DNA of 14,359 nucleotides from assembly GCF_003334315.1 (NCBI RefSeq), contig NZ_QOWR01000078.1; one strand, given 5' to 3'. Shown here one piece after another: positions 4,978 through 9,920 of this stretch; position 1 is the first letter of the stretch; each line of letters starts with the position of its first letter. The notes under the pieces are model-generated. The model was not told where the DNA came from and made no database searches. It worked only from the letters and a program-made list of their open reading frames with translations. The DNA comes from Escherichia coli (GTDB taxonomy: Bacteria > Pseudomonadota > Gammaproteobacteria > Enterobacterales > Enterobacteriaceae). Both the position numbers and the translations under genes were made by a program.

Positions 4978-6024
4978 ATGCCAGTTTTGCAGTGGGGAAT
5001 GTTATGTGTGCTATCACTTCTCCTTTCTATTGGTTTCCTCGCGGTACATCTCCCGGCGGCGCTATTACTTGGGCCGATGATCGCCGGGATCATCTTTAGT
5101 ATGCGCGGAATTACTCTGCAACTTCCCCGCTCTGCTTTTCTCGCCGCCCAGGCCATTCTTGGCTGCATGATTGCGCAAAACCTCACTGGTTCGATTCTCA
5201 CCACCCTGGCCGTCAACTGGCCGATCGTGCTTGCAATTTTACTGGTAACGCTGCTTTCCAGCGCCATTGTGGGTTGGTTATTGGTGCGCTATAGCTCATT
5301 GCCTGGAAATACCGGTGCCTGGGGCTCCTCTCCTGGCGGCGCGGCGGCAATGGTCGCTATGGCGCAAGATTACGGCGCAGATATTCGCCTGGTGGCGTTT
5401 ATGCAATATCTGCGAGTGCTGTTCGTCGCGGGGGCCGCTGTTCTGGTCACCCGCATGATGCTGGGCGATAACGCTGAAGCGGTTAACCAGCATATCGTCT
5501 GGTTCCCGCCAGTGAGCATTAATCTCCTGCTTACTATTTTGCTCGCGGTCGTTGCCGGTACAGTGGGATGCCTGCTGCGTCTTCCTTCCGGCACGATGCT
5601 CATCCCGATGCTGGCGGGCGCAGTGCTCCAGTCTGGTCAGCTCATCACCATCGAACTACCGGAATGGCTGCTGGCGATGGCGTATATGGCAATTGGCTGG
5701 CGGATTGGTCTTGGTTTCGATAAACAAATCTTACTGCGGGCACTACGCCCGCTACCGCAAATCCTGCTGTCGATTTTTGCTCTGCTGGCTATTTGTGCGG
5801 GTATGGCGTGGGGGCTGACCCGGTTTATGCACATTGATTTTATGACTGCCTACCTCGCCACCAGCCCCGGCGGGCTTGATACCGTGGCGGTCATCGCCGC
5901 AGGGAGCAATGCCGATATGGCGCTCATTATGGCGATGCAAACCCTACGCCTGTTCAGTATTTTGCTGACAGGGCCTGCCATTGCGCGGTTTATTTCAACC
6001 TATGCGCCGAAGCGGTCGGCCTAG
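4978..6024 (+). CDS. abrB: AbrB-family (AbrB/YhhI-like) inner-membrane protein, putative transporter/regulator, 348 aa
   Basis: ATG at 4978 preceded by GAGGGA (about 7 nt spacing). Highly hydrophobic multi-pass membrane protein beginning [26 protein letters not shown]. Recognised as E. coli AbrB (YbgN). The ORF-track start at 4900 is probably too far upstream. Confidence 0.88.
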
Positions 6025-6812
6025 TGCTGGCAGCCAGGGCACCAGTAAAACGGGCGAGATGACAGCGTGGTTTTCTCAATGATGCTGCCACAACGTTCGC
6101 ACGGTTCGCCATCTCGATGAAAAACCTTAAAGCGAAACAGCGCCCCATGATGCTTATTCTCATCCACCTGCCCCCGCGTAGCGTAGGAAAATCGAGGAAT
6201 CTCCAGTAACGCGTGTGCGAGTGCATCCAGTTGCGCCGCATTGAGATCTTTCGCTTTATGATTTCCAGTCAACCCAACCTGCCAGAGGATCTCCACCCGC
6301 AAATAATTGCCAAGCCCAGCCAGAAACGCCTGATCGAGCAGTAATCCTGCAAACTGACGGTTACGAAAGCGCGGTGACAATAACCGTTCCTTTACCACCT
6401 CCGGCGTCAGATTCGGATCCAGCACATCGGGACCAACGCGTTGTAAAAACGGATGCGTGGTCAGTTGTTCCGGCCTCAACATCTCAATATCCGAGGCGCT
6501 ATAAAGCAGAATGGTTTTGTCAGCCGTTTGCAGTTTTACCCGCAATACTCGCGTGGTCTGCGGCTCTTCGCCGGTATCAACCACGCGCCAGACGCCGTAA
6601 AGCTGATTATGGCTGTAGAGCGTTAAGTCGTTGGAAAAATGAGTTAACAACGCCTTACCACGCGTTTCCACATGGGTAACGTGTTGACCGATAAGTTGTG
6701 ATTGATAAGTTTTTAACTGCGGGAAGGCAAACCAGACATCAGTTAGTGGTTTGCCTTTGATCGCCGCCTCCAGGTTATCCGCTGCACGGCGGATCTCCGG
6801 GCCTTCAGGCAT
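6021..6812 (-). CDS. nei: Endonuclease VIII (DNA glycosylase/AP lyase, Fpg/Nei family), 263 aa
   Basis: N-terminal MPEGPEIRR (catalytic Pro2 motif) and a C-terminal CxxC...CxxC zinc finger (CERCGS...CPGCQH). Recognised as E. coli Nei. Confidence 0.95.
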
Positions 6813-6847
6813 GGTGATATCCTTTTTTCATTCTTTATTAATCGGGG

Positions 6848-7582
6848 TTATGCTGCGACAACAATCTCCTTTTCGGCAAATGTAGAGCGTAGTCGGCGGG
6901 CGAACGCCAGTGCGTGCTCGCCGTCGCCATGCAGGCAGACTGTTTGCGCCGTGACCGTTGCCCATTCGCCGGTGATACTTTTGACTCTGCCGTGTTGCAC
7001 CATCTCCAGCGTTTGCGCCAGCGCCTGTTCTTCGTTTTCAATCAACGCGCCTGACTGGCTTCGCGGCACCAGCGAGCCGTCAGCCTGATAACCGCGATCG
7101 GCAAACACTTCCTCGCGCGTTGTCAGACCATATTGCTTGCCTGCACGAATCAGCTCGCTTCCCGCCAGCCCGACGAGAATCAATGCTGGATCGCAAGCGT
7201 ATACCGCTCTGGCGATGGCGTCTGCCAGTTGTGCTTCTTTCGCCGCCTGGTTGTACAACATGCCGTGCGGTTTGACATGACGCATTACGCCGCCTTGCGC
7301 ACGGGCAATCGTTGCCAGCGCGCCAATTTGATACAGCGTCTGGGCGTAAACGGTTTCTGGCGGCAGCTGCATGGCGCTGCGACCAAAATTTTCCCTGTCG
7401 GGAAAACTCGGGTGAGCGCCAATCGCGACACCATTTTTTATTGCTTCACGCACGCAAGCCTGCATGATTTGCGCATCGCCTGCATGAAATCCACAGGCAA
7501 TATTGGCAGAGGAAACCAGCGTTAATAGCTCTGCGTCGCTGGCGCAGCCTTCGCCCAGATCGGCGTTCAGGTCAATTTTCAT
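6848..7582 (-). CDS. pxpA: 5-oxoprolinase subunit A (LamB/YcsF family), 244 aa
   Basis: Begins [16 protein letters not shown], the LamB/YcsF family signature. Recognised as YbgL/PxpA. Start codon overlaps the end of the upstream gene. Confidence 0.92.
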
Positions 7583-8504
7583 TGTGCAGCCGCCACGCTA
7601 ATTGTTCAAAATAACGTTGCTGATCTTGCCGTGCTTTTAGTGCCTCTTCCAGTGAACACTGGACAAAATGAATCGGCTGACCGAGCGGAATTTGCGCCAG
7701 ATGGTACATATCAGCCTCAATGATACAGGCAATACGCGGGTAACCACCGGTGGTCTGTGCGTCGTTCATCAACACAATCGGCTGCCCGTTATGTGGCACC
7801 TGCACCACGCCCGGTAACAAACCGTGAGATAACAGTTCGCGATCGGTGGTGCGTTTTAAAATTTGCCCCTGTAAGCGATAGCCCATGCGGTTACTTTGCG
7901 AGCTAAGCTGCCAGGGCGAACGCCAGAATGCATCCTGCGAGGCGCGATCGAACTCATGATATTCCGGCCCCGGCAAGGCGCGAATGCGGTTGCCCCACAG
8001 CAGCTGTTTAACGCCCTGCGCTTCCATAGAATCACGCTTCGATTTGCCAATCGGGAGTCGGTCACCATCCTTCAGTAAACGGCCTTCCAGCCCGCCAATC
8101 CCCACTTTGAGATCGGTGCTGCATGAGCCCATTACCGGCGGAACATCAATACCACCCGCGACCGCCAGATAACTGCGCATCCCGTGCTGCGGGCGTTTAA
8201 GCGTTAAACGCTGGCCTGCTTTCATCGGCAATCGCCAGCCGGTCCAGACGGCATTATCATCCAGCCGCGCTTCGCAACCGGCACCCGTCAGAGCAAACCA
8301 CCCATCAGTTTCGAACTCAACAGTTAACTGACCGAGCGTGATCTCCAGCGCGGGGGCATTGGCGTCATTACCCACCAGTAGGTTAGCAATGCGTAACGCG
8401 GGCATATCCAGTGCGCCGCAGTGGCTGATACCCGACTGGCGAAAACCGTGACGACCGCCATCCTGCACAGTGGTATACATGCCCGCACGAATAATCTTCA
8501 GCAT
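7572..8504 (-). CDS. pxpC: 5-oxoprolinase subunit C (KipA / allophanate hydrolase subunit 2-like), 310 aa
   Basis: Recognised as YbgK/PxpC. ATG at 8504 (minus strand) preceded by AAGGAGGG. Overlaps pxpA by 11 nt and pxpB by 7 nt. Confidence 0.92.
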
Positions 8505-9154
8505 ACTCCCTCCTTCTGCGGTACAAAGCGCACGCTGTCTCCCGGACGTAATAAGATGGGTTCGTCACGCGCCGGATCAAACAGGCTGAGTGAGGTATGA
8601 CCAATCAACTGCCAGCCACCCGGCGTTGCCAGCGGATAAACACCAGTCTGCGGCCCGCCGATCCCGACAGAACCTGCCGGAACGAGTAAGCGCGGTTCAG
8701 CGCGCCGTGGCGTGTGTAGTTGTTCCGGCAAACTCCCGAGATACGGGAAGCCCGGTTGAAAACCTAAAAACCAGACCACGTATTCCACGGAGGAGTGCAA
8801 TTCAACAACCTGTTTTTCGCTCAACCCGCAATGCGCCGCGACCACCGCCAAATCCGGTCCGCCTGCACCACCGTAAACCACCGGAATTTCAATAAAGCGA
8901 GACTCCGGCTCCAGCGCCTCGCTCTCCTCCCACCAGCGTTGCAAACGCTCTATGGCATCCAGCGCCAGCGACTCAGGATTACGCAAAATCACCGTGATAT
9001 TGTTCATGCCGGGAATGGCTTCAACCACATTCGGCATATCCACCAGACGCTGCGCCAGTCGCCAGATCCGTTTCTGGCTAGCCAGCGTCACCGGCGGTTC
9101 CAGTTCCAGCACTACCGCCGTTTCACCTATCAGATAACAACGCGCTCGTTGCAC
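8498..9154 (-). CDS. pxpB: 5-oxoprolinase subunit B (KipI / allophanate hydrolase subunit 1-like), 218 aa
   Basis: Recognised as YbgJ/PxpB ([21 protein letters not shown]...). The first codon is GTG (cac on the plus strand at 9152..9154), preceded by GAGGGA. Confidence 0.9.
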
Positions 9155-9176
9155 TTTCGATCCCTCTGATTATTCG

Positions 9177-9920
9177 TTATGCAGGATTAGGAATATCAAT
9201 AAAGGTCACATCAAGATCGGTATTTTCATTCAGCCACTCGCTCAATGCGCGAATACCACCACGTTCAGTGGCATGGTGACCTGCAGCATAAAAATGCAAT
9301 CCCTGCTCGCGGGCTGAATGAATGGTCTGTTCAGAAACTTCGCCAGTAATAAAAGCATCCACGCCAAAACGCGCGGCGCTATCGATAAAACTTTGCCCGC
9401 CGCCCGTGCACCAGGCGACGCGCTGGACCACCTCAGGTCCGGTATCGCCACACCATAACGGCTTACGTCCCAGACGCGCTTCAATCCAGGAAGCCAGCTC
9501 CAGTCCCGGCACAGGCATGGTCAGTTCGCCCCACGGCACCAACGGCTCAATTTCGCCCATGACCGTGATCCCCAGTAACGCCGCCAGCTGTGCGTTATTG
9601 CCCAGCTCAGGATGTGCGTCAAGCGGCAAATGCCAGCCATACAGGTTGATATCATTCGCCAGCAACGTTTTTAAACGGTTACGCTTCATTCCGCGAATGA
9701 CCGGAGACTCTCCTTTCCAGAAGTAGCCATGATGCACAATGACCGCATCCGCGCCCAGACGCACTGCCTCATCGAGCAAAGCCTGGCTGGCGGTGACACC
9801 GGTAACAATTTTTTGCACCGTCTCTTTGCCTTCCACCTGCAAACCATTCGGCGCGTAATCACTAATCGCCGCGCTGTTCAGTTTTTCGTTAATCAGTTGT
9901 TCCAGTTCGGTGTTTTTCAT
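9177..9920 (-). CDS. ybgI: NIF3-family metal-binding protein (GTP cyclohydrolase 1 type 2 homolog), 247 aa
   Basis: Recognised as E. coli YbgI (MKNTELEQLINEKLNSAAISDYAPNGLQVEG...). GGAAGG Shine-Dalgarno upstream. First gene of the minus-strand ybgI-pxpBCA-nei operon. Confidence 0.92.
   Translation of the reverse strand: MKNTELEQLINEKLNSAAISDYAPNGLQVEGKETVQKIVTGVTASQALLDEAVRLGADAVIVHHGYFWKGESPVIRGMKRNRLKTLLANDINLYGWHLPLDAHPELGNNAQLAALLGITVMGEIEPLVPWGELTMPVPGLELASWIEARLGRKPLWCGDTGPEVVQRVAWCTGGGQSFIDSAARFGVDAFITGEVSEQTIHSAREQGLHFYAAGHHATERGGIRALSEWLNENTDLDVTFIDIPNPA

Follow-up and report, generated by a model that had tools for sequence, protein, structure and literature searches.

Gene content and layout of the locus

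We analysed a 14,359-nucleotide (nt) stretch of Escherichia coli DNA (contig NZ_QOWR01000078.1; the whole stretch is hereafter called the window), in which five co-directional minus-strand genes on the list of open reading frames (ORFs), namely ybgI, pxpB, pxpC, pxpA, and nei, fill positions 6021-9920 (Table 1). This segment is the core-chromosome E. coli ybgI-pxpBCA-nei operon, a unit already described with nei as its terminal gene, and it agrees with that operon in gene content, order, and strand, and in its place between dtpD and abrB; newly added here is a survey of the ybgI neighbourhood in 80 species. Megablast of positions 5900-10200 found the segment in 5425 of 5426 complete E. coli genomes at 95-100% identity, nearly always on the chromosome. 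Its DNA is 99.72% identical to b0710-b0714 of strain K-12 MG1655, with YbgI, PxpB, and PxpC unchanged at the protein level and three and two substitutions in PxpA and Nei, respectively. Consistently, the RefSeq annotation of a 100%-identical genome places the same five coding sequences at the same coordinates, with abrB and the fimbrial genes ybgOPQD beyond nei and with dtpD, phrB, and ybgA beyond ybgI.

Table 1. Coordinates of the operon genes and of the upstream elements within the window (aa, amino acids).
Feature	Position	Strand	Length	Description
dtpD/ybgI intergenic region	9921-10190		270 nt	Divergent; read as holding both promoters
Second conserved block	10064-10092	plus reading		TGTATA-N17-CATATT
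Promoter-like element	9984-9956	minus		TCGACG (9984-9979), 17-nt spacer, TATGTT (9961-9956)
ybgI	9177-9920	minus	247 aa	ATG start; NIF3/DUF34 dinuclear-metal protein; heads the operon
pxpB (ybgJ)	8498-9154	minus	218 aa	GTG start; 5-oxoprolinase subunit B; AGAGGGA upstream
pxpC (ybgK)	7572-8504	minus	310 aa	5-oxoprolinase subunit C; AAGGAGG upstream
pxpA (ybgL)	6848-7582	minus	244 aa	5-oxoprolinase subunit A (LamB/YcsF)
nei	6021-6812	minus	263 aa	Endonuclease VIII; final gene; own AAGGA ribosome-binding site

Recomputed from the sequence, the junctions are +22 nt (ybgI/pxpB), -7 nt (pxpB/pxpC; overlap ATGCTGA, in which the pxpC start lies on the pxpB stop), -11 nt (pxpC/pxpA; overlap ATGAAAATTGA), and +35 nt (pxpA/nei), exactly the values that an earlier interpretation made from the letters alone (the sequence-only reading) had given for its five minus-strand genes. 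No Shine-Dalgarno sequence was evident at the pxpA start, unlike those of pxpB, pxpC, and nei, and, given the overlap with pxpC, pxpA is likely to be translationally coupled to it. The tight spacing does not appear to be a matter of chance, since the pxpB/pxpC overlap was identical in all 35 loci of other species that have both genes, and the ybgI-pxpB gap stays within 14-46 nt across Enterobacteriaceae.

Protein identities were judged against the curated cut-offs of NCBIfam equivalog models, and all five proteins scored above them, bearing out the identities proposed by the sequence-only reading. More specifically, YbgI reached 531.6 bits with NF008064 (cut-off, 414) and 276.9 bits with TIGR00486, PxpB 355.6 bits with TIGR00370 (cut-off, 145.6), PxpC 591.8 bits with NF045499 (cut-off, 500), PxpA 514.1 bits with NF003812 (cut-off, 378), and Nei 505.2 bits with NF007763 (cut-off, 252). 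With its three subunits present, each above the cut-off of its curated model, the 5-oxoprolinase PxpABC is encoded here in full; Niehaus et al. reportedly identified PxpABC in 2017 as the prokaryotic 5-oxoprolinase, an ATP-dependent enzyme converting 5-oxoproline to glutamate. Nei is a full-length member of the Fpg/Nei glycosylases, having the MPEGPE N terminus (Pro2-Glu3), a C-terminal four-cysteine zinc finger (CERC at 238 and CPGC at 258), and a match to PDB entry 1K3W (E=1.6e-181).

YbgI, identical to K-12 b0710, matched PDB entries 1NMO and 1NMP along its full length. RefSeq gives its product name as "radiation resistance protein YbgI." That name probably stems from a screen by Sargentini et al. 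in 2016. All seven residues of the NIF3/DUF34 metal site, defined as five His, one Asp, and one Glu (PMC8469502), are present (H63, H64, H97, D101, H215, H216, and E219), as is H103, and with these residues, a length of 247 aa, and no PII-like insert, the protein is a YbgI-type member of the family. We did not adopt the label "type 2 GTP cyclohydrolase I" carried by NF008064, despite the model match; ybgI reportedly fails to complement a folE mutant, and the authors of that work argue that the name "GTP cyclohydrolase I type 2" has spread as a mis-annotation (PMC8469502). The same review of DUF34 treats the role of YbgI as unsettled, favouring a metal chaperone or insertase, and the sequence-only reading was right both on this point and in calling the gene arrangement known. 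One NCBI sequence (protein P0002, 425 aa) joins a NIF3 domain (PF01784), 100% identical to YbgI over the matched part, to a PxpB domain (PF02682); a sequencing or annotation error that fused the two genes over their 22-nt spacer probably accounts for it.

At its margins, the window cuts ybgD of the ybgDQPO fimbrial cluster (left end) and enters the ISAs1-family (H-repeat) transposase pseudogene ybfD (13897-14359, right end), as annotated by RefSeq in the 100%-identical genome.

Promoter region, operon end, and co-transcription

Within the spacer between dtpD and ybgI, an alignment of the corresponding intergenic regions of nine dtpD-containing species revealed the pattern TCGACG-N17-TAT(G/T)TT, both hexamers of which were invariant or nearly so in all nine, at 63-84 nt upstream of the ybgI ATG. 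A pattern search recovered it in every dtpD-containing locus (8) and, in addition, in Pluralibacter. The start expected from the E. coli copy lies ~29 nt upstream of the ybgI ATG. A simple sigma-70 consensus scan of 5800-10300 found no minus-strand promoter, including inside the operon, and it missed this conserved element because just 8 of 12 consensus positions are matched. Published data place sigma-70 in the same region: by chromatin immunoprecipitation sequencing, the dPeak study separated two binding events of sigma-70, and it reported a primer-extension start at 742,030 (U00096.2; PMC3798280). This start converts to ~20 nt upstream of the ybgI ATG, with ybgI at 742,827 in NC_000913.3. 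For the conversion, the offset between U00096.2 and NC_000913.3 was assumed to be 777 nt.

The second sigma-70 site of the dPeak paper, a RegulonDB start at 741,874 (PMC3798280), corresponds to approximately position 10096 of the window and coincides with a second block of the spacer that is invariant in the nine species. As this block reads as TGTATA-N17-CATATT toward dtpD, we take it as the likely promoter of that gene. The E. coli sequence also has an inverted repeat with perfect 9-bp arms (TTATGCAAT-N10-ATTGCATAA) at 10071-10098, of which the right arm alone is conserved. A terminator-like hairpin at 10033-10020 was considered as a leader attenuator and rejected: its stem is 5 bp with two G-U pairs, it lies upstream of the conserved promoter-like element, and it is not kept beyond Escherichia. 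A mention of "ybgI" in a ChIP-exo preprint proved to be a typographical error for ygbI and was not used.

At the opposite end, the stop codons of nei and of the convergent plus-strand gene abrB overlap in the palindrome CTAG (6021-6024), leaving zero intergenic space, and a terminator scan of 4800-6200 detected no minus-strand site below 6021, hence no terminator-like hairpin downstream of nei. Operon transcripts should therefore run antisense into abrB. Terminator-like minus-strand hairpins were found inside ybgI (9379-9359), pxpB (8790-8776), and nei (6147-6128), and we rejected them as real terminators: they belong to 11 matches where 5.6±2.4 were expected, three of the 11 being overlapping versions of a single site, and they lie in coding sequence. 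We judge them to be chance occurrences.

Rfam, applied at gathering thresholds, returned nothing inside 6021-9920. Its sole match in the window was the small RNA ES036 (CssrF; 11717-11759, minus strand, 75 bits), which falls in the spacer between the convergent genes dtpD and phrB (11673-11821), a segment whose fold is one long hairpin (-66.2 kcal/mol, z = -6.6). We take this hairpin, by eye, to consist of two inverted repetitive extragenic palindromic (REP)-like elements (GCCGGATGCGGCG... / ...CGCATCAGGC), that is, a repeat of the bacterial interspersed mosaic element (BIME) type. Given its position inside this REP-like hairpin, the ES036 match is probably a REP element.

The sequence is thus compatible with a single transcript, with junctions of at most 35 nt and a conserved promoter-like element ahead of ybgI. 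Gifford and Wallace are said to have reported in 2000 that nei is co-transcribed with the four upstream ORFs. RegulonDB lists the operon "nei,ybgI,ybgJ,ybgK,ybgL" (as quoted in PMC4448311), and the single transcription unit proposed by the sequence-only reading agrees with this published description, as it does with the title of the Gifford and Wallace paper. The literature lends good support to co-transcription in E. coli.

Neighbourhoods of ybgI across 80 species

We ran one scan of 100,044 species genomes with a YbgI alignment, obtained 80 loci (numbered with the prefix L), each with as much as 10 kb of flanking sequence, and mapped the proteins of the window onto them by tblastn. The sample comprises 42 Enterobacterales loci and 38 from other gammaproteobacteria, including Pasteurellaceae, Vibrionaceae, Aeromonadaceae, Alteromonadales, Shewanella, and Orbaceae. 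The YbgI homologues that served solely to build the scan alignment reached just ~75% identity among the matches listed.

Among the Enterobacterales loci, ybgI is followed by pxpB in 35 of 42 and preceded on the same strand by phrB in 37, often at a distance of 12-40 nt, and nei lies downstream on the same strand in 27. Outside the order, neither pxp genes nor nei occurred near ybgI in any of the 38 loci, and phrB lay within 10 kb of it in two only (L072 and L081). The neighbours of ybgI in Vibrionaceae and Morganellaceae are seqA-pgm on one side and gltA-sdhCDAB on the other. Judged by these neighbourhoods, ybgI would be the old resident of the locus, with nei and the upstream phrB as lineage-specific neighbours.

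The common layout in Enterobacterales is ybgA-phrB-ybgI-pxpB-pxpC-pxpA-DUF969-DUF979-pcp-nei. In 14 loci, pxpA and nei are separated by 0.7-2.5 kb holding genes for DUF969 (PF06149), DUF979 (PF06166), and the pyroglutamyl-peptidase I Pcp, all inserted genes being co-directional with the operon. Carriers of DUF969-DUF979-pcp include L003 (13123-15491), L028, L020, L025, L059, and others; Pectobacterium, Brenneria, and Rahnella retain pcp alone between pxpA and nei, and the E. coli locus has none of the three. Earlier literature connects DUF969 and DUF979 with 5-oxoproline operons, where they would probably serve as a transporter, and together with pcp and these two the pxp genes appear to make up a coherent pyroglutamate module. 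The compact five-gene form of E. coli is found in 6 of the 42 Enterobacterales loci (those of E. coli and E. albertii, that of Enterobacter cloacae, L013, L014, and L016), and L008 and L042 (Hafnia) present looser variants of it with extra spacing.

Parts of the array are missing in several lineages. No pxpA was found within ±10 kb in L010, L015, and L017, in which nei comes 12-29 nt after pxpC; PxpB and PxpC would be left there without their partner, unless pxpA is encoded elsewhere. The entire pxp block is absent from L018 (Klebsiella sp. BIGb0407, 8578-11617), which reads phrB-ybgI-nei with gaps of 16 and 90 nt, and nei is absent from the locus in Yersinia, Acerihabitans, Rosenbergiella, Erwinia endophytica, and Mangrovibacter. 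Wherever nei is present it is the last gene, and in 25 of 27 such loci 2-90 nt separate it from the gene ahead (pxpA, pxpC, pcp, or ybgI), the exceptions being L008 (329 nt) and L006 (1164 nt). This constant last place, close to whichever gene precedes it, is what dependence on upstream transcription would lead one to expect.

The E. coli locus has dtpD, in opposite orientation, between phrB and ybgI, an arrangement associated with a promoter region dedicated to ybgI; species in which just 12-40 nt part phrB from ybgI (13 nt in Enterobacter cloacae, L007) are without such a region. Yersiniaceae and Hafniaceae have a phrB-ybgI gap of ~1.0-1.2 kb in the dtpD slot (L021, L028, L031, L032, L036, L038, L042, and L047). 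In L028, the one locus of these that was read, the gap holds a co-directional ORF with a signal-peptide-like N terminus and an HGHLDH motif of the metallo-beta-lactamase type.

What the grouping reflects, and related systems

We consider it very probable that the locus is a single ybgI-pxpBCA-nei operon whose grouping records evolutionary history rather than a shared pathway. On this account, a sigma-70 promoter directly ahead of ybgI, within the spacer that separates it from the divergent dtpD, would drive one polycistronic unit, and the stop/start overlaps at pxpB/pxpC and pxpC/pxpA would couple translation of the three 5-oxoprolinase subunits; the ATP-dependent enzyme would, as described in the literature, turn spontaneously formed 5-oxoproline back into glutamate. 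As the last gene, with a ribosome-binding site of its own and no space for a promoter, nei would be expressed by read-through, and transcription past it would run into the convergent abrB. The E. coli operon would be a reduced form of the Enterobacterales array ybgA-phrB-ybgI-[pxpBCA-DUF969-DUF979-pcp]-nei, in which a self-contained pyroglutamate module is presumably lodged, as a hitch-hiker, between ybgI and nei. What the survey suggests is a grouping peculiar to one lineage and cut down in E. coli, not a functional partnership of long standing.

The sequence-only reading had proposed that the operon links metabolite repair with base-excision repair, to be judged in part by co-conservation across genomes. 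As a statement about co-expression, within one bacterial order, the link holds; as a functional coupling of 5-oxoproline repair with base-excision repair, it is not supported by conservation in our survey. Co-conservation proved weak evidence for it, the linkage being confined to Enterobacterales and the modules having been lost independently of one another within that order.

One alternative is functional co-expression, in which YbgI would act as a metal chaperone or insertase for its partners, for instance by supplying the zinc finger of Nei with Zn or PxpA with a divalent metal, or as a damage-tolerance factor together with phrB and nei. The CxxC...CxxC zinc finger of Nei, the RefSeq name of YbgI, and the frequent position of phrB directly upstream of ybgI speak for it, and the DUF34 review, which proposes the chaperone/insertase role, also lists the family as "putatively involved in DNA repair"; however, that review records no defect in survival of ultraviolet light for a ybgI mutant, and its main text is silent on the pxp COGs (COG1540, COG2049, and COG1984), nei, and photolyase (PMC8469502). 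The neighbourhoods also count against it: the 38 loci outside Enterobacterales keep ybgI without nei or pxp genes, with phrB in just two, Vibrionaceae and Morganellaceae have it amid seqA-pgm and gltA-sdh, and Yersinia, Acerihabitans, and Rosenbergiella keep ybgI-pxp without nei. On balance, we regard functional co-expression as improbable. A narrower form of the idea makes YbgI a DNA-damage-related factor whose partners are phrB and nei and not the 5-oxoprolinase, through metal loading of the Nei zinc finger or support of radiation repair, for example; it draws on the phrB-ybgI-...-nei frame, which survives loss of the whole pxp block in L018, and we give it a similarly slim chance.

That the five genes are not one unit, with ybgI, pxpBCA, and nei expressed mainly from separate internal promoters under independent regulation, is very unlikely: outside Enterobacteriaceae the ybgI-pxpB gap widens to 106-421 nt (Erwiniaceae, Pectobacteriaceae, and Yersiniaceae) and reaches 1.8 kb (Rahnella) and 4.2 kb (Hafnia), so that pxp could have a promoter of its own there, but the two gaps in E. 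coli are short and its other two junctions overlap, the consensus scan gave no sigma-70-like minus-strand site within the operon, nei keeps tight behind its predecessor in nearly all loci, and RegulonDB (PMC4448311) and published work treat ybgI to nei as one operon with nei at its end.

Some points nevertheless weigh against a single operon grouped by history. The published start lies ~9 nt from that predicted by the conserved -10 hexamer, and either the coordinate conversion or the promoter assignment may be slightly off; the transcript evidence is second-hand; on sequence evidence alone there may be internal promoters, for example inside pxpA; and selection for a functional link could lie behind the co-directional synteny of phrB, ybgI, and nei that persists from family to family.

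The locus is textbook-level E. coli biology, and the finding as such matters little. The comparative map offers a modest clarification of why nei follows the 5-oxoprolinase genes: the pxp genes would be a portable pyroglutamate module, and nei would stay attached to any upstream gene that supplies transcription. It may also steer work on YbgI away from a role in 5-oxoproline metabolism assumed through "guilt by association" and toward a possible link with phrB and nei.

Compared with known systems, the segment shares genes, order, spacing, and the flanking dtpD and abrB with the K-12 operon (b0710-b0714, formerly ybgI-ybgJ-ybgK-ybgL-nei), from which it differs by the strain-level substitutions in PxpA and Nei only. 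The extended Enterobacterales array (for example, in Citrobacter werkmanii L003, Pantoea L020 and L025, and Serratia plymuthica L028) keeps the shared genes in identical co-directional order, with an identical pxpB/pxpC overlap and nei in last place; E. coli, in contrast, is without DUF969, DUF979, and pcp, whence its 35-nt pxpA-nei spacer, and has dtpD inserted. Bacillus subtilis (ycsF/pxpA, kipI/pxpB, and kipA/pxpC) and Corynebacterium glutamicum (pxpTABC) have the same PxpABC enzyme of three subunits, its genes grouped and often accompanied by one for a transporter; unlike the E. coli operon, these two clusters are without a NIF3/YbgI gene or nei and have the regulators KipR and PxpR, respectively, absent here. 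The rsxABCDGE-nth operon of E. coli lies elsewhere, and its upstream genes encode a membrane redox complex. In it, too, a base-excision glycosylase (endonuclease III) is the promoter-less last gene behind functionally unrelated genes, and, by its title, the paper of Gifford & Wallace (2000) treats this operon together with that of nei.

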